Below, one piece after another: positions 46,036 to 52,465 of a stretch of DNA of 64,000 bases. The stretch's first letter is position 1. Every line of letters begins with the position of its first letter. The position numbers and the translations under genes were made by a program. Source of the stretch: Bacillota bacterium (GTDB lineage: Bacteria > Bacillota > UBA4882 > UBA10575); contig DUNX01000094.1 of the NCBI GenBank assembly GCA_012839115.1, forward strand, positions 88-64,087, in the 5' to 3' direction. The notes under the pieces are model-generated. The model was not told the DNA's origin, searched no databases, and saw nothing but the letters and a program-made list of their open reading frames with translations.

Positions 46036-47149
46036 TTGGTAGAGCCTGCAGAATTAAAGGCAAAAATCATTGCGGCCATGAAACGCTTGGGAGAAATGAG
46101 GGAGTATCTTTGACCTTGAGGCCAAAGAAGAACGGATAAAAACCTTAACCGGGAAGACCGTGGCGCCGGATTTCTGGACGGACCAGGCTGCCGCCCAGGA
46201 GACCCTGAGAGAACTGAATTCCTTAAGGGAAACGGTGGACAAACTTACCCGGCTGGAGAAGGATTTTCAGGATCTCCAGGAGTTGCTGGAATTGGCCTTG
46301 GAAAGCGGTGAAGAGGAGGTGCTCGAGGAGATCGAGGAAGGTTTGGCCGGAGCCCTCCCGGCCTTGGAAGAATTGGAACTTACCACCCTTCTGGAGGGGG
46401 AGTTTGACCACTGCAACGTCTATCTCTCGATCCACCCCGGCGCGGGTGGTACCGAGTCCCAGGACTGGGCGGGGATGCTACTGAGGATGTATACCCGGTG
46501 GACGGAGAAAAAAGGTTATAAAGTTGATCTGATCGAACTCCTTCCCGGTGATGAAGCGGGGATTAAAAGCGCAACCCTGTATATCCAGGGAACAAATGCC
46601 TTTGGGTATCTGCGCGGGGAGAAGGGGGTGCACCGGTTGGTCAGGATTTCTCCTTTTGACGCTTCCGGGCGCCGGCACACCTCTTTTGTTTCGATTGATA
46701 TCCTTCCGGAACTAAGTGATGATTTGACCGTCGAGATCCGGCCGGAAGAGATCAAAACGGACACCTTCCGGGCGGGCGGCGCCGGGGGGCAGCATGTGAA
46801 TAAGACCGAATCGGCGGTGCGCTTAACCCACCTGCCTACAGGGATCGTTGTTACCTGCCAGAACGAACGTTCACAACACCAGAACCGGGAGATGGCCATG
46901 AAGCTGCTCAAGGCCAAGCTGGCCGAGGAACAACGCAGGCAACAGGCGGAGAAGTTGGACCAGATTAAGGGGGAACAGACGGAGATCGCCTGGGGAAACC
47001 AGATCCGGTCCTATGTCTTTTGCCCTTATACCATGGTCAAAGACCACCGGACAGAGAAGGAAACCGGAAATATCCAGGCGGTAATGGACGGCGACTTGGA
47101 CCCGTTTATTGAGGCGTTTTTGCGTTCGCCGTATAACAAGGCCAATTAA
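46036..47149 (+). CDS. prfB: Peptide chain release factor 2 (requires programmed +1 frameshift at 46108-46114)
   Basis: ORF0 (TTG 46036 ... TAT CTT TGA at 46105-46113) encodes [25 protein letters not shown]. Skipping T46111 continues in the frame of the 46160-47149 ORF ([10 protein letters not shown]...). SPF and GGQ ([16 protein letters not shown]) motifs are present. Confidence 0.92.
46099..46114 (+). promoter_or_regulatory. prfB autoregulatory +1 frameshift site (SD-like AGGGAG + TAT CTT TGA C)
   Basis: Matches the canonical bacterial RF2 recoding cassette: internal Shine-Dalgarno 3 nt upstream of slippery CUU, then UGA-C. Confidence 0.88.
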
Positions 47150-47283
47150 GATAACGGCGTGCGTGCGCCCGTAGAACCGGGCGGATGACGTGTGGCGGCG
47201 TGCGCGCAGGAGCGGGTAATAAATTTGGGGCGTGCGGCGTAGAAACAGGTGATAAATTTATGGTGCGCGGCACAGAAACGGAG
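47148..47283. repeat. About four degenerate ~33-bp units (..ATAA..GGCGTGCG..GTAGAAAC..)
   Basis: TAATAAATTTGGGGCGTGCGGCGTAGAAACAGG (47217-47249) and TGATAAATTTATGGTGCGCGGCACAGAAACGGA (47250-47282), plus two more diverged units upstream. Confidence 0.7.
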
Positions 47284-47292
47284 TGAGGCAGA

Positions 47293-48006
47293 TTGCCGTT
47301 CTTAAAAAAATGGGCCAGGCTGGTTCTCATCTGCAGCCTGCTGGTAATAGCCATAATCCTTTTTTCCGGCGTGACCCTTTTCAACCACTACCTGGAGAAG
47401 GAGTTTACGCAAACGATCACGAGAGAGACCAAAATAGCGGAGGATATAGATTGGCATCTGGCGCCGTTGGGCTTATTTGATCTGATCCGGGGGCGAACAA
47501 GGGATCTTCAATTTTCCGCCGGCCGCTTGGCTTTTCAGGACGGACCGGTCCTTGAGGATTTTACTCTCAAGAGCCGGGGTATTCAGTTGAACCGGAATGC
47601 CTTCTTGTTTGAGGGGAAGATCGAGGTTCAGAAATTGGCCGAAACGGAATTGACCTTCCGGATCGCCGAAACGGAATTGACCTCCTTTTTGCAGGATGAG
47701 TGGCCGGAATTCGTTCCTTCCGTAGAGTTATCGCCCGGGGCCGTCAGGATCGAAGGAATAGTCAAGGAGCCGCTTTTAAAAGAGGAATTACCCTTTACCG
47801 CTTCCGTCCGCCTGGAACAGGCCTCCGGTAACAGTTTACGCCTAACCCCTGTCAACATTAAGATCGGTGATTTTGAGGTGCCGCCCGGGGTATTTGCGAA
47901 AGAGATCTTGAACTGGCAGTTTCCCCTGGAACTGCCCTGGCCTTTAATGATCAAAGATTTCCAGGTGGAAGAGGGGTTTTTGCGCATGCAATGGCGGGAG
48001 AAATAA
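47293..48006 (+). CDS. Membrane-anchored hypothetical protein, DUF2993 / LmeA-like (tentative)
   Basis: 237 aa. N-terminal TM, then beta-rich repeats with the pattern seen in DUF2993 proteins. Family assignment is from memory only. Confidence 0.5.
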   Translation: MPFLKKWARLVLICSLLVIAIILFSGVTLFNHYLEKEFTQTITRETKIAEDIDWHLAPLGLFDLIRGRTRDLQFSAGRLAFQDGPVLEDFTLKSRGIQLNRNAFLFEGKIEVQKLAETELTFRIAETELTSFLQDEWPEFVPSVELSPGAVRIEGIVKEPLLKEELPFTASVRLEQASGNSLRLTPVNIKIGDFEVPPGVFAKEILNWQFPLELPWPLMIKDFQVEEGFLRMQWREK

Positions 48007-48051
48007 AACGGCAAAGAGTGTACCGGCCCCTGGTTTGAGGAGGGAGAGAAG

Positions 48052-49263
48052 ATGAGGTATTTCGTTTCCGCCGGGGATCACTCCGGGGATATGCATGGTG
48101 CAACTTTGGTCCGGGAGATCAGAAAACTTGACCCGGGGGCGGAGTTCTACGGGATGGGCGGACCGCTGCTGGCCGGGGCGGGAGTTAAGATTTCCTTTGA
48201 TCCCACCCGGTACAGTACGATTGGTTTTTTGGAGGCAGCCGGCCAATATTTTCGTTTTCGCCGTTTACTCCGGGTTTTTACCCGCCTATTAACGGAAAAC
48301 CGGCCCGACGTTTTGCTCTGGATTGATTTTGGCGGCTTTAACCTGGCCTTGGCAGAGCAGGCACGGAAACTATCCATTCCGGTCGTCTGCCTTTTTGCCC
48401 CTTCCGCCTGGGCCTACGGGAAAAAAAGGGCCGTCCGGATGAGGAATTGTGTCTCGCATTTGGCCGCGGTCATGGGGTTCGAAGCCGATTTTTTCCGCAG
48501 TTTCGGGCTGAAAGTGACCTATACCGGCCATCCCCTGCTCGATAGAGTTGAGGGCGTTCTTCCCCGGGAACAATGGCGGAAGACCCGGGGGATTGGGGAT
48601 GAAGAAACCGTTGTGGTTTTAATGCCGGGAAGCCGCAGGCAAGAGGTGGAGGCTTTGCTCCCGGTGATGCTGGCGGCGGCAAAAAAACTTGCCGGCGAAG
48701 ACCCGGAGGCGGGCAAAAAAATCCGGTTCTTTTTGCCCCTGGCGCCGACGATCGAGAAATGGCGGTTAAATGCTTTACTGGCGAATTTCCCGGAGGTCAC
48801 CGTGGTCAATGAAGATATCTATCCTTTGCTGGCCGGGGCCGACCTTGGCGTGATTACTTCCGGTACCGCCACTTTGGAAGCGGCGCTCCTGGGGTTGCCG
48901 GCGGTTGTCGTTTACCGCCTTTCCCCCATTACGGTCTTTATCTTCCGGCGGTGGCTACGGAATAAGGAGGAGAAGAACAGGGAATTATTGGTTGCCCTCC
49001 CGAACCTGATTGCCGGGAGGAAAGTCATCCCCGAGCTTATCCAGGAAGACCTGACCCCGGAAAACCTGAAAAACGAGATGGCAAAGTTATTATGGGACGA
49101 AAAGGCCCGGGCGGAGATCAAGGCGGAATACACAAAGCTCCAGGGCCAACTGGGTCCGCCCGGGGTGATGGCCAGAGTCGCCCGGATCGTTATGGCGGAA
49201 GCCCAGGCCCGCCCCAGTCCTAAAGCAGGGCAAGATACACAAGAGAATGAACATGCCCAATAG
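48052..49263 (+). CDS. lpxB: Lipid-A-disaccharide synthase homologue (GT19, LpxB-like)
   Basis: 403 aa. Alignable by eye with E. coli LpxB along its length: SAGDHSGDMHG (cf. AGETSGD), APSAWAYGKKR (cf. SPSVWAWRQKR), LMPGSRRQEVE (cf. LLPGSRGAEVE), LPNLIAGRKVIPELIQ (cf. LPNLLAGRELVKELLQ). Confidence 0.85.
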   Translation: MRYFVSAGDHSGDMHGATLVREIRKLDPGAEFYGMGGPLLAGAGVKISFDPTRYSTIGFLEAAGQYFRFRRLLRVFTRLLTENRPDVLLWIDFGGFNLALAEQARKLSIPVVCLFAPSAWAYGKKRAVRMRNCVSHLAAVMGFEADFFRSFGLKVTYTGHPLLDRVEGVLPREQWRKTRGIGDEETVVVLMPGSRRQEVEALLPVMLAAAKKLAGEDPEAGKKIRFFLPLAPTIEKWRLNALLANFPEVTVVNEDIYPLLAGADLGVITSGTATLEAALLGLPAVVVYRLSPITVFIFRRWLRNKEEKNRELLVALPNLIAGRKVIPELIQEDLTPENLKNEMAKLLWDEKARAEIKAEYTKLQGQLGPPGVMARVARIVMAEAQARPSPKAGQDTQENEHAQ

Positions 49264-49402
49264 CGTGCAGCCTTGGCAGCGTGACCATGCGCAGCAGCGT
49301 GACACCGCAAAGAGCGGGACGAACCCGGAAGGAAAATAGCAGGATGGTGTTCTAGGTCTCCCCCTTCTGACATATGGTAAACTGTGAAGATCAGAAGACG
49401 GG

Positions 49403-50278
49403 GTGGAGGCCTTGCGCATCCTGGTTTTTTCAAAAAAACACTTTTTCGGCCTTACCCTGCTGATATTATTGGCAGGGTCTTTTTTTCTCCGGCCGGCGGG
49501 TATGGTTGATATTATCCGGCAGGCTTCCGTCGTTTTGAGCGGACGAATTATCCCCATTTACTCTGTGGAGACCCCCGAAAAAAAGGTGGCCATCTCTTTT
49601 GATGCGACTTGGGGTGCGGACCAAACCCCTAAACTGTTGGAGATTTTAGCAAAAAACCAAGTACGGGCCAGTTTTTTCCTTTGCGGCCTTTGGCTGGAGA
49701 AATACCCGGAGATGGTGAAGGCGATTGCCCGGGCGGGCCATGAGATCGGTAACCATACATATACCCATCCCCACCTGAACAAGATGGCAAAGGAAGAGAT
49801 CGCCCGGGAACTGCTGAAGACCCACCGCTTAATCCAGGAGTTGACAGGGCAAACCGCCACCCTTTTTCGTCCCCCCTTTGGCGAATACAACAACAAAGTG
49901 ATTGAGACGGCAGCCGGGTGCGGTTATACCACAATAATTTGGGATATTGACTCCCTGGACTGGCAGGATCTCTCCGCCGCCGCCATGCTGGAACGGGTCC
50001 AAAAACAGCTACGGCCCGGAGCGATCATTCTCTTTCATAATGCCGGGAAGCACACGCCGGAAGCGGTTGCCGCCCTTTTGCCAATCCTGAAGAGCAAAGG
50101 GTATTCGGTGGTACCCATCTCCCAGCTTTTGCTTAAGGGGGAGACCTATACGGATCATACCGGACGCCAGCGGTTGAAGATGCGCACGCGCGCGAGTCCT
50201 CCTGCAGGGGACGGGTCAATTCGCGGGCGGGCGTACGACTTCTACCATTTGCTGGTATCGGGGAGGGGGTACAGGTAA
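49403..50278 (+). CDS. Polysaccharide deacetylase (NodB homology domain; PdaB-like sporulation type)
   Basis: FDATWG, GHEIGNHTYTH and LFRPPFGEY motifs with an N-terminal TM. Has an unusual Arg-rich C-terminal tail of about 45 aa. Confidence 0.85.
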   Translation: MEALRILVFSKKHFFGLTLLILLAGSFFLRPAGMVDIIRQASVVLSGRIIPIYSVETPEKKVAISFDATWGADQTPKLLEILAKNQVRASFFLCGLWLEKYPEMVKAIARAGHEIGNHTYTHPHLNKMAKEEIARELLKTHRLIQELTGQTATLFRPPFGEYNNKVIETAAGCGYTTIIWDIDSLDWQDLSAAAMLERVQKQLRPGAIILFHNAGKHTPEAVAALLPILKSKGYSVVPISQLLLKGETYTDHTGRQRLKMRTRASPPAGDGSIRGRAYDFYHLLVSGRGYR

Positions 50279-51261
50279 TGGCGGTTCTTGTTTTAGAGCG
50301 GGTGAAGATCGTCCGCTTTTTTTGCGGGGTCTTTTTGGTTTTAATGATTATCTGGGGGATCTCCCGTTGGCCGGAGGCCGGGCGGAGCCTTTACGGTGTA
50401 AAAGACCGGGTGACCCTGGAGGGGTTATCCGTGGAACGTCTCCTCCCCCATGAACTCCAGGCGCTGGTGGAGGAGTTGGCAAAAAGATGCATGCTGCAAC
50501 CGGAAAATGCCGGGTTTTTCCCGGAAACCGGGGAGCTGATCCCGGAAAAAACGGGTTTAGGGGTTGACATCGAAAGTACGGTAGAGAACGTTTTACGGGC
50601 CCAGCCGGGGGAGGCGCTATCACTTGTCACTTACTCGATTCCGGCAGCGGTGACCAAGGATTTTTTTACCCCCGTTTTCAAAGGAGATACCACCGGGAAA
50701 AAAGCCGGCATCAGTATTAATGTGGCATGGGGGGAAGAAGAAATCCCTGCCATGCTTTCGATCTTTCGTGAACATAAGGTAAAGGCCACATTTTTCTTTG
50801 TCGGGGATTGGGTCCGGAAATTTCCGGATTTGGTGAGAGAGATCAGCCGGGAAGGACATGAAATTGCCAACCACGGGCTCTATCACGGCCATCCGAACAA
50901 GATGGGCCGCACGGAGCTGCAGAAACTGATTGTGGAGAACGCCCGGTTGCTGGATGAGGTGACGGGGGAACCGCCGGTAAAGCTGTTTGCCCCGCCTTAC
51001 GGGGAATTCAACAACGAAGTGCTGGCCGTTGCCGGGAACCTGGGCTACCGGACGATCCTTTGGACCATCGATACAGTTGACTGGAAGCGGCCGGCGCCGG
51101 AGGTCATCATCCAACGGGTGACAGAAAGGATCGAACCGGGGGCAATCATCCTTATGCACCCCACCGCACCTACGGTCGAGGCGTTAAGCCCGATCATCAA
51201 GAACCTCAAGGAACAGGGTTACAGCTTTCTTCCTGTTGGCAAGTTGCTGCGGGAAGGATAG
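50278..51261 (+). CDS. Polysaccharide deacetylase (NodB homology domain; YlxY-like)
   Basis: N-terminal TM, middle domain, then NVAWGEE, GHEIANHGLYH and LFAPPYGEF motifs. The ATG overlaps the upstream stop. Confidence 0.85.
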   Translation: MAVLVLERVKIVRFFCGVFLVLMIIWGISRWPEAGRSLYGVKDRVTLEGLSVERLLPHELQALVEELAKRCMLQPENAGFFPETGELIPEKTGLGVDIESTVENVLRAQPGEALSLVTYSIPAAVTKDFFTPVFKGDTTGKKAGISINVAWGEEEIPAMLSIFREHKVKATFFFVGDWVRKFPDLVREISREGHEIANHGLYHGHPNKMGRTELQKLIVENARLLDEVTGEPPVKLFAPPYGEFNNEVLAVAGNLGYRTILWTIDTVDWKRPAPEVIIQRVTERIEPGAIILMHPTAPTVEALSPIIKNLKEQGYSFLPVGKLLREG

Positions 51262-51579
51262 GATTCGCACGGTGGCGCCTATAAAAAGCAAAATACGCAT
51301 TATTACCATTATTTGCTAGATTGAGTTACTCTTTTTTTAACATCGAGAAAAAGGAAGAAAGAGAAATATGGCGTATATAGTAAAAGAAAACAGATACTCC
51401 AGGAAGTAAACAAGCCGTGCGCAAGAGCGTGCAAATTCCCGCCTACACAGGTCCCGCATACGCGGGCGTCGCGTACAAGGGAAGGGGTGAAAAAATAAAA
51501 CGGGCGTCAAGTCCCGCGCCCGCGCGCTGGTGCGCCGCTTACGCAGTAGCTTGTGGAGTAAAGAGGAGGCGTTTTTAAG

Positions 51580-52074
51580 TTGAAAAGAATAACCACTGTT
51601 TTGCTGGCGGTAATCATTTTGGCAGTTTTTCCTGCGGCCGCGTGGGGTCTGAACACACCTGCTGTCTCGCGGAATCATGGAGTGGTCACCGCCAGATTCA
51701 TCAGTGATGCCGGCCTGTTCCTCGGAGGAGAATATGGGGTCACCGAGGATCTGGCGATCCTGGCGGAGCTTGGATCCAAGAACTCGAACAGGATAGGCCT
51801 GAAATACCAGATCGGCCGGTTGGCTGTGACGGGAGGAGTAATGAGCTCCTCAGTCTTTTTCGGGCTTAATGGCGGCGGGGCGCTGGGCAATAAGCTCACC
51901 GGGATCTTTGAGGTCGATGCGGTGATGGCCAGCGGCGAACTGGGTTTCCTTTATGAAGTAGGGGTTAAGTTCGATATTGACCGGAAAATTGATCTCCGGG
52001 GCGGGCTGTATGGCGCCACTTTTGGGTCATTCAGTTCCCTGCAATTCCAGATCGGCGTGGGGTATAGTTTTTAA
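51580..52074 (+). CDS. Small secreted protein with outer-membrane beta-barrel-like features
   Basis: 164 aa. Cleavable signal peptide (..FPAAAWG/L). About 8-10 amphipathic alternating-hydrophobic segments separated by G/N/D/S turns. C-terminal QIGVGYSF ends in Phe, like the beta-signal of OMPs. RBS AGAGGAGG. Confidence 0.55.
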   Translation: MKRITTVLLAVIILAVFPAAAWGLNTPAVSRNHGVVTARFISDAGLFLGGEYGVTEDLAILAELGSKNSNRIGLKYQIGRLAVTGGVMSSSVFFGLNGGGALGNKLTGIFEVDAVMASGELGFLYEVGVKFDIDRKIDLRGGLYGATFGSFSSLQFQIGVGYSF

Positions 52075-52079
52075 CTCCC

Positions 52080-52108
52080 TTGACAAACAGTACATTAATG
52101 AGTATATT
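52080..52108 (+). promoter_or_regulatory. Sigma-A-type promoter for the valS leader
   Basis: TTGACA (52080-52085), 17-bp spacer, TATATT (52103-52108). Confidence 0.6.
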
Positions 52109-52139: not shown

Positions 52140-52465
52140 GATTATAACGATGACCGGAAGGAGTAGCCCCGCGTGCGGATCCCGCCACAGCAGACTTTCA
52201 CCATATGTGGCAGGGAATCGCGGGCGAACCTGCAGCAGAGAACGGGTCCGGCGCAGGCGCGCAAGGCTGGAAGACCCGGCAGGGGCAGGGGTGAAGGTCG
52301 TCCGGGAGTTCTCCGGCTGAAAAGCTGCAAAAAGGCACAGGAGTAAGCCGGAGCGGCCAGGCCCGTTAACGCCGCGCAAGCGCCCCTGTTCCGCCCTGGC
52401 GTACAGGGGAAAAAAGGTGGTACCGCGAAGACCTTTCGTCCTTTAGTGATGGAAGGTCTTTTTTC
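52140..52465 (+). promoter_or_regulatory. T-box riboswitch leader (valS)
   Basis: Stem I start AACGATGA..GGAAGGAGTAG (GA motif + AGTA box), AGAGA box (CAGAGAAC), F-box-like CCGTTAA, and the conserved T-box sequence AAAAAGGTGGTACCGCG (52411-52427). This overlaps a terminator (AAGACCTTTC / GGAAGGTCTT + T6, 52428-52465). GTC triplets occur in the candidate specifier region GAAGGTCGTCC (~52293-52303). Confidence 0.85.

Follow-up and report, generated by a model that had tools for sequence, protein, structure and literature searches.

A predicted lipid A disaccharide synthase gene displaced from the lpx operon and lying among envelope genes of a putative Hydrogenispora-related diderm sporeformer

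Introduction

The DNA considered here, hereafter the window, is a stretch of 64,000 nucleotides from a member of the Bacillota (assembly GCA_012839115.1, contig DUNX01000094.1, positions 88 to 64,087 of the forward strand), which corresponds to contig C69 of an assembly of 2.35 Mb in 148 contigs that is 96.9% complete. Between positions 47293 and 52074 it carries five consecutive genes for an LmeA/DUF2993-like protein, the glycosyltransferase LpxB, two NodB-type proteins resembling PdaB and YlxY, and a small predicted outer-membrane beta-barrel. We consider that the locus probably consists of three adjacent envelope units in a Hydrogenispora-related diderm sporeformer, rather than of one pathway cluster. 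The identities of the genes, the remaining outer-membrane genes of the same genome and the conservation of gene order among relatives are shown directly, whereas where the operons begin and end, what the LmeA-like protein does and whether the YlxY-like protein is inactive are matters of inference.

An earlier, sequence-only reading of the window had described five consecutive same-strand genes in a Firmicute bearing spoIVA and spoIIM. All five open reading frames (ORFs) are indeed present on the plus strand, and both sporulation genes were matched within the window (spoIVA, TIGR02836, 714 bits; spoIIM, TIGR02831, 131 bits).

LpxB and the outer-membrane genes of the genome

The lpxB gene (48052-49263, plus strand) encodes a GT19 protein of 403 amino acids that matches PF02684 with an E value of 2.9e-78 and exceeds the cut-off of the NCBIfam equivalog TIGR00215 (242.6 vs 190.25 bits). 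It aligns with Escherichia coli LpxB (PDB 5W8S) over residues 6-363 (E 8.7e-41), in agreement with the earlier description of a full-length LpxB homologue, and its residues D92, R195, E276 and N318 align to, and are conserved with, D98, R201, E281 and N316 of the E. coli enzyme, the importance of which is known from mutagenesis and structural work. It is the only full-length PF02684 match, and the only canonical LpxB, in its genome (denoted G000), which also encodes the suppliers of its substrates, LpxA, LpxC and LpxI on contig C28 and LpxD on contig C94. The window protein is thus predicted to be an ordinary lipid A disaccharide synthase and the sole one of the cell, an assignment decided by the equivalog score and single-copy status and not by a GT19 tree. 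It shares with the E. coli enzyme (PDB 5W8S/5W8N/5W8X) full-length homology, the aligned residues, the TIGR00215 assignment and a genome encoding the substrate enzymes. It differs in that its gene lies outside any lpx operon, its C-terminal tail is about 20 residues longer, lipid X would come from LpxI and not LpxH, and there is no LpxK or WaaA downstream in the pathway.

The description of this lpxB as an orphan is true of the window only. No other lpx gene occurs there, as had been stated, and the matches of the genome to LpxC, LpxA, LpxI, LpxD and BamA all lie on contigs C28 and C94 and none on C69. Contig C28 carries genes for an MsbA-like ATP-binding cassette (ABC) exporter, an 847-aa unannotated protein with an ABC ATPase, then lpxC (C28:34276), fabZ, lpxA and lpxI, followed by genes for a 203-aa protein, an OstA-domain LptA-like protein, LptB and LptF/G. 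Contig C94 carries tamB, bamA (with POTRA and Omp85 domains), skp, lpxD, a second lptF/G and the gene for a 793-aa unannotated protein. Among the relatives searched, LpxC was found in 19 of 21 and LpxB in 29 of 31.

Taken together, the early steps of the Raetz pathway, the Bam, Tam, Skp and Lpt genes, and spoIVA and spoIIM argue for a diderm, endospore-forming Firmicute. One possibility raised earlier, a sporeformer bearing lipopolysaccharide (LPS) with scattered lipid A genes, is supported by the presence of lpxA, lpxC, lpxD, lpxI, lptA/B/F/G, bamA, tamB and skp elsewhere in the genome. A complete canonical lipid A/Bam/Lpt set, which had also been envisaged, was found only in part: Bam, Tam, Skp, the inner-membrane and periplasmic parts of Lpt and the early Raetz steps are encoded, whereas LpxK, WaaA and KdsA, which stand for the late Kdo2-lipid A steps (Kdo, 3-deoxy-D-manno-oct-2-ulosonic acid), are missing.

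A scan of two outer-membrane clusters gave a single LptD-type match, to the LptD_N domain of the small LptA-like protein; no dedicated search for LptD was made. LptD/E were reported as not recognisable in diderm Firmicutes (Antunes 2016, PMC5007114), while the predicted outer-membrane proteins (OMPs) of Acetonema longum are listed as including an LptD and a 729-aa OMP with an OstA-like N-domain (2026, PMC13018214). Two large proteins of the present genome are without a Pfam match. The 847-aa protein is encoded together with the ABC ATPase at C28:30876-34168 (L024:877-4169), just before lpxC; the arrangement is shared by G006, which represents the sister genus, and by other lineages (L057, L060). 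The 793-aa protein is encoded after lptF/G at C94:8650-11031 (L054). Either could be a missing LPS component of the outer membrane.

The outer-membrane clusters of other diderm Firmicutes, namely Negativicutes, Halanaerobiales and Limnochordia (PMC5007114; Taib 2020, cited in PMC11456536), resemble those found here in the lpxC-fabZ-lpxA-lpxI order, two OstA-domain proteins, lptB and lptF/G, in the tamB-bamA-skp-lpxD order and in the large unannotated protein and ABC ATPase ahead of lpxC. They are also alike in having no Pfam-recognisable LptD-type gene, with the limit that this holds for the two clusters scanned and that LptD itself was not searched for. The present genome differs in that lpxB has moved to a position beside ylxY and a DUF2993 gene, the cluster occupies two or more separate loci, and lpxK, waaA and kdsA are missing throughout the genus.

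The LpxB protein is 87% identical to that of the digester metagenome-assembled genome (MAG) 'Bacillota bacterium AS09scLD_203', which has been equated with the earlier bin DTU055 (Campanaro 2020), and further homologues carry the NCBI names 'Hydrogenispora sp.' (54% identity) and Hydrogenispora ethanolica (47%). SILVA places Hydrogenispora in the Limnochordia, a class reported to be diderm. The organism would thus belong to a Hydrogenispora-related lineage of anaerobic-digester MAGs, the class being taken from the names of LpxB homologues and from the literature and not from a phylogeny. In two genomes of the same class (G014 and G018, family f3, 95% complete) no LpxC, LpxB, LpxK, WaaA, TIGR03492 or above-cut-off KdsA was detected, and they may have lost LPS, or the outer membrane, secondarily within a diderm class.

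Conservation of gene order

About 15 kb of sequence around LpxB was compared for 27 relatives by tblastn, phmmer and hidden Markov model (HMM) searches. Within family f1, to which the present genome belongs, the order secA-prfB-LmeA-LpxB-PdaB-YlxY recurs in all 17 other genomes examined, from six further genera, with two contigs ending inside the block, and the LmeA-like/LpxB/PdaB/YlxY order is therefore present in 18 of the 18 family members examined. The single genome of family f2 shows LmeA-LpxB-PdaB-YlxY, and PdaB at this locus is confined to families f1 and f2. Four of the five f5 genomes carry LmeA-like-LpxB-YlxY with genes for an M16 peptidase and a dUTPase further on (shown for three), and the same arrangement is found in H. 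ethanolica (GCA_004340685) and in a JGI contig, where an opposite-strand GH18 gene lies between YlxY and the peptidase. One further contig carries LmeA-like-LpxB without YlxY.

A different arrangement occurs elsewhere. In G017 (family f6) LpxB lies 1.5 kb from lpxC, and in this genome and two metagenomic contigs it is positioned in or beside an lpxC-fabZ-lpxA-lpxI block, the common arrangement of diderm Firmicutes, while in other lineages it is located directly 3' of lpxI. Because these lineages keep lpxB by the lpxI/lpxC block, the comparison shows, as far as gene order can be read, an apparent relocation of lpxB out of an lpxC-fabZ-lpxA-lpxI-lpxB operon within the class, presumably in an ancestor common to most of its members, and its subsequent retention beside the DUF2993 gene.

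The neighbourhood is conserved in all 18 f1 genomes examined, in f2, in most of f5 and in H. ethanolica. The earlier caveat that the clustering may be coincidental is therefore too strong for the LmeA-like/LpxB pair, although it was right in treating the two NodB genes as ordinary sporulation types. There is nothing to suggest that the five-gene stretch was imported recently, since its G+C content is the same as that of the rest of the window.

The LmeA/DUF2993-like protein

The first gene of the locus (47293-48006, plus strand) encodes a protein of 237 amino acids that matches PF11209 with 51.7 bits against a cut-off of 27.3, over 207 of the 217 profile positions, in keeping with its earlier description as a membrane-anchored protein of DUF2993 type. 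With K5, K6 and R9 on the N-terminal side of a hydrophobic stretch (residues 10-30), the positive-inside rule, from which this topology is taken, predicts an N-terminal membrane anchor and a periplasmic body. An AlphaFold2 (AF2) model (predicted local distance difference test, pLDDT, 73) consists of a helix from residue 3 to 45 followed by an alpha/beta body. The gene is single-copy in its genome, as judged with a class-derived HMM, and word-based homologue searches retrieved only close relatives, with eight proteins for the LmeA-like query and 11 for the barrel described below.

DUF2993 proteins have been predicted to be anchored in the inner membrane and to face the intermembrane space, with Chorein-N-like and TULIP lipid-transfer domains (Levine 2019, PMC6791001), and the periplasm is the reported location of LmeA in mycobacteria (PMC7643837). 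The window protein resembles mycobacterial LmeA in its PF11209 domain, its length of about 240 amino acids and, by prediction, its N-terminal anchor and extracytoplasmic body. It differs in that the host would be an LPS-bearing diderm Firmicute and not a lipomannan-producing mycobacterium, its gene partner is LpxB, it has no fold match in the PDB and its lipid-binding role is putative. Most plausibly it would bind a lipid, either lipid A/LPS or a phospholipid, at the periplasmic face.

The PdaB-like and YlxY-like proteins

The two genes after lpxB encode membrane-anchored proteins of the NodB/CE4 family. The first (49403-50278, plus strand; 291 amino acids; PF01522, E 2.4e-39) has TIGR02764 as its best NCBIfam match, at 217.2 bits below the cut-off of 237.4, and the second (50278-51261, plus strand; 327 amino acids; PF01522) has TIGR02873 as its best, at 212.6 bits below 391.5. 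These matches, to PdaB and YlxY respectively, accord with the view that the pair are ordinary sporulation types. The PdaB-like protein, aligned to PDB 6HM9/7BKF, shows the motifs SFDATWG, HTYTH and FRPPFG, in which the catalytic Asp, the motif-3 Arg and His-x3-His are kept and the metal-binding D is replaced by A, and it is probably an active deacetylase.

The best PDB matches of the YlxY-like protein are 7BKF, 6HPA and 6HM9 (E 9e-54), which we take to be the CE4 pseudoenzyme BA3943 of Bacillus anthracis and its reactivated mutants. In INVAWG it carries N for the catalytic D and V for the metal-binding D, and in FAPPYG it carries A for the motif-3 R, with His-x3-His kept (HGLYH). The same INVAWG and FAPPYG substitutions occur in 7BKF, while 6HPA has IDVAWG and 6HM9 has IDDAWG and FRPP. 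BA3943 is known to depart from the TFDDG motif (PMC6115787). Because of the substitutions shared with 7BKF, the YlxY-like protein is probably non-catalytic and perhaps a binding protein. The sequence-only reading had listed two deacetylases, and while both are membrane-anchored NodB proteins, the second lacks the catalytic residues.

In family f5 and in H. ethanolica YlxY is followed by the M16 peptidase and dUTPase genes, and the adjacency to the peptidase supports the predicted orthology with YlxY. The monoderm Bacillus presumably has the same ylxY-mlpA (M16 peptidase)-dUTPase order. Compared with the Bacillus CE4 sporulation proteins (YlxY; PdaB/BA0150), the window proteins belong to the same subfamilies by their best NCBIfam and PDB matches, and the YlxY-like protein has the N, V and A substitutions in common with 7BKF, but the pair fall below the equivalog cut-offs, are adjacent with apparently coupled translation and reside in a diderm host.

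The small outer-membrane beta-barrel

The last gene (51580-52074, plus strand) encodes a protein of 164 amino acids with a signal peptide and the C-terminal sequence GYSF. Its only Pfam match, to OMP_b-brl, is sub-threshold (19.6 vs 28.7). An AF2 model (pLDDT 78.3) shows a signal helix and ten strands, and all the Foldseek matches in the PDB at E<=0.001 are natural or designed transmembrane beta-barrels, including KdgM, the OprF N-terminal domain, OmpA, OmpW, OmpX and designed 10-strand barrels. The model and these matches agree with the earlier suggestion of a beta-barrel-like secreted protein ending in GYSF, and the ten strands predicted speak against a barrel of eight. The signal peptide, the antiparallel barrel, the C-terminal aromatic-x-Phe and the presence of BamA on contig C94 are all as expected of a member of this group. 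The gene is single-copy in its genome, and its homologues are limited to genera g1 and g5 and close metagenomic relatives.

A lineage-specific small outer-membrane beta-barrel is therefore indicated by the model. It is like OmpX, OmpW, KdgM and the OprF N-terminal domain in its signal peptide, antiparallel barrel, C-terminal aromatic-x-Phe and length of about 140 mature residues, and the same likeness extends to the small uncharacterised OMPs of A. longum (PMC13018214). It differs from these known small barrels in falling outside their sequence families, in its ten predicted strands and in its restriction to two genera.

Transcription units

In f2 and in the majority of the f1 genera, the stop codon of the LmeA-like gene and the start codon of lpxB overlap over 4 nt, and this overlap is kept across genera in which the LmeA-like proteins are only 33-45% identical. 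For the PdaB/YlxY pair an overlap of 1-4 nt occurs throughout, and in the window the YlxY start overlaps the PdaB stop by one base. Between lpxB and the PdaB-like gene lies a spacer of 139 nt. Its sequence differs among the four genomes compared, which represent two genera, apart from a nearly invariant 43-nt block (49342-49384, plus strand) containing CATATGGTA (49371-49379), a candidate promoter for the NodB pair. The block includes a -10-like motif that fits the sigmaK -10 pattern CATA-N3-TA; no matching -35 was found for it, the sigmaE, sigmaK and sigmaG patterns were otherwise unfitting, and no sigma factor is claimed. The 318-nt spacer between ylxY and the barrel gene also carries a conserved block in the four-genome alignment (51350-51386, plus strand), about 200 nt upstream of the barrel gene, which may represent a promoter of its own.

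On the basis of this spacing, of the stop/start overlaps and of the conserved spacer blocks, we infer three units: an lmeA-like/lpxB operon, a pdaB/ylxY pair and a lone barrel gene.

The spacers ahead of the barrel gene (51400-51545) and of the LmeA-like gene (47150-47290) are taken up by GC-rich tracts of GCGTGC/GCGCGC type. The GC-rich insert of about 140 nt between the second block and the barrel start is shared by the window and G001 but lacking in G002 and G006, as would be expected of a repeat inserted recently. A scan for consensus promoters and terminators yielded no more sites than in shuffled sequence, with the exception of a strong sigma70-like site after the barrel gene that probably belongs to the valS leader.

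The five genes are flanked by secA and prfB upstream and valS downstream. The prfB gene shows a classical programmed +1 frameshift site, GGGAG TAT CTT TGA C, at about 46100-46114 (window 46036-46115), ahead of the long ORF beginning at 46160. The valS gene is preceded by a sigma70-like promoter close to the consensus (TTGACA-17-TATATT, 52080-52108) and by a hairpin with a T-run (52427-52461) that resembles a terminator; together they look like a leader or attenuator. Rfam gave zero matches at the gathering threshold between 42 and 56 kb, including no T-box ahead of valS.

Alternative explanations

Several points weigh against the reading of the locus as three units headed by a functional lmeA-like/lpxB operon. 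In genus g1 the LmeA-like and LpxB genes are separated by 45-46 nt, the window having a gap of 45 nt and no overlap, and the operon boundaries in general are drawn from spacing and conservation. LpxB occurs without an LmeA-like gene in three genomes of f4 and in one each of f5 and f6, and an adjacency confined to a single class could have been kept by descent without any functional meaning. Foldseek found nothing in the PDB that matched the LmeA-like model at E<0.1, so that its lipid-transfer fold is suggested by Pfam membership and the literature. Direct contact between the LmeA-like protein and LpxB is unlikely, because LpxB acts on the cytoplasmic side, whereas a periplasmic position is predicted for the body of the LmeA-like protein. 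Finally, the pseudoenzyme assignment of the YlxY-like protein follows from three substitutions seen in comparison with crystal structures whose identity as BA3943 is, as stated above, our assumption.

It has to be considered whether the five genes act as a single co-regulated module for making the outer membrane in sporulation or germination, since a diderm spore must regenerate that membrane, with LpxB for LPS, the LmeA-like protein as lipid carrier, PdaB/YlxY for cortex remodelling and the barrel as a structural protein, all switched on together. The common strand and short gaps would suit such a module, as would the LpxB/YlxY adjacency kept from f1 to f5 and H. ethanolica; moreover, A. longum increases its transcripts for the synthesis and transport of LPS when it sporulates, and its dormant spores contain LPS enzymes (PMC13018214). 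Nevertheless, the barrel gene is found in only two genera and PdaB in only two families, one contig has LmeA-LpxB without YlxY, and the conserved spacer blocks suggest separate promoters. Furthermore, the YlxY-M16 peptidase-dUTPase order of f5 matches the one presumed above for Bacillus, so that the position of YlxY probably predates its contact with LpxB. We consider a single module unlikely.

The opposite view, that the gene order is a historical accident and that the neighbours of lpxB share neither function nor regulation with it, would accommodate the difference in predicted compartments between LpxB and the LmeA-like protein, the observation of their pairing so far inside one class only, and the retention of lpxB in the lpx operon, without a DUF2993 neighbour, by other diderm Firmicute relatives. 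It does not readily account for a 4-nt overlap that persists despite the divergence of the LmeA-like proteins, for the survival of the pair at a locus that no longer has YlxY, or for the single copy of the LmeA-like gene, and we regard it as quite improbable. An orphan GT19 enzyme making a non-lipid-A, glucosamine-based glycolipid in a monoderm sporeformer, as had been proposed from the lack of other lpx genes in the 64-kb window, can hardly be correct and is refuted by the genome searches, given the LpxB equivalog score, the kept residues, the sole canonical copy, the enzymes LpxA, LpxC, LpxD and LpxI and the MsbA-like, LptA/B/F/G, BamA, TamB and Skp proteins.

Exchange of the late lipid A genes

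Neither LpxK (PF02606) nor WaaA (PF04413), nor an above-cut-off match to KdsA (TIGR01362), was found in the present genome or in either of the other two of its genus; in many relatives these families are matched at E values of 1e-44 to 1e-124. Contig C28 encodes instead, in a 419-aa ORF (C28:19598-20857), a protein of the family TIGR03492, 'lipid-A-disaccharide synthase-related protein' (314.8 bits vs a cut-off of 219.2). Among 58 genomes of the class, TIGR03492 occurs in 19, WaaA in 34 and both in none; of the five with neither, two also lack LpxB and LpxC. Every genome with LpxK (28) or KdsA (31) also has WaaA. The split between TIGR03492 and WaaA cuts across families and runs within genus g2, and several switches must therefore have occurred. 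Of the control genomes, those of Synechococcus and Deinococcus alone carried TIGR03492.

Gene order on contig C28 agrees with that on contig C20 of G006 to either side of the region concerned, with speE/speB on the left and the 847-aa protein, the ABC ATPase and lpxC through lptFG on the right. Between these, the present genome carries a cassette (C28:17815-30858; L023/L024) of msbA-like, TIGR03492, rmlD, rmlB, rmlC, a gene for a 455-aa LpxB-like protein and a GT2 gene. At the same site G006 carries, according to the positions of family matches, lpxK, two waaA, kdsA, several unannotated ORFs and a GT2-like gene. The comparison points to cassette replacement at one chromosomal locus.

Because lpxK, waaA and kdsA are absent, the product of LpxB in this genus would carry neither a 4'-phosphate nor Kdo. 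A four-enzyme lipid A pathway yielding LPS without Kdo and phosphate has been described for Cyanobacteria and Dictyoglomi (Opiyo 2010, PMC3087551), and by analogy the loss of the late steps here would fit it. The likeness extends to the TIGR03492 protein, which is present as in the Synechococcus control genome. The present case differs in lying inside the Firmicutes, in being polymorphic within one family and even one genus, in the use of LpxI and in a cassette with dTDP-rhamnose genes and a third GT19-like protein.

A broader proposal, which we put forward tentatively and consider doubtful as it stands, is that the class builds two interchangeable inner cores on the product of LpxB. One would depend on LpxK, KdsA and WaaA, and the other, free of Kdo and of the 4'-phosphate, would arise by direct glycosylation by TIGR03492 and a second LpxB-like GT19 fed with dTDP-rhamnose, the DUF2993 protein serving in both as a dedicated periplasmic carrier of lipid A/LPS or phospholipid, in a lineage whose two scanned outer-membrane clusters showed no recognisable LptD. 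The same direct glycosylation of the lipid A disaccharide is suspected in cyanobacteria.

A working model

For the three-unit locus and its genome the following sequence of events may be envisaged. LpxA, LpxC, LpxD and LpxI would make UDP-2,3-diacyl-GlcN and lipid X, which LpxB, working on the cytoplasmic side of the inner membrane, would join into the disaccharide-1-phosphate. The first core sugar might then be added by TIGR03492 and/or the 455-aa paralogue, the MsbA-like exporter might flip the product and LptB/F/G/C/A might carry it outward, with the LmeA-like protein handling lipid A/LPS or phospholipid in the periplasm after the MsbA flip. The PdaB-like/YlxY-like pair, with coupled translation, would act on spore peptidoglycan and BamA would insert the 10-stranded barrel into the outer membrane.

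Implications

What is new here is modest but real, namely a probable class-wide lmeA-like/lpxB operon and an LPS variant free of Kdo and LpxK that appears to have arisen by cassette exchange. The puzzle of an orphan lpxB dissolves, in that the organism is seemingly a diderm Firmicute with an ordinary LpxB and the five genes would be held together by descent. The export of LPS and phospholipid in diderm Firmicutes is incompletely known, and the operon-level link between DUF2993 and lpxB across the class provides a candidate for an envelope lipid-handling step in these organisms. Moreover, the swap of cassettes between close relatives constitutes a natural experiment that could assign a function to TIGR03492 and could explain how Kdo-free LPS is assembled.

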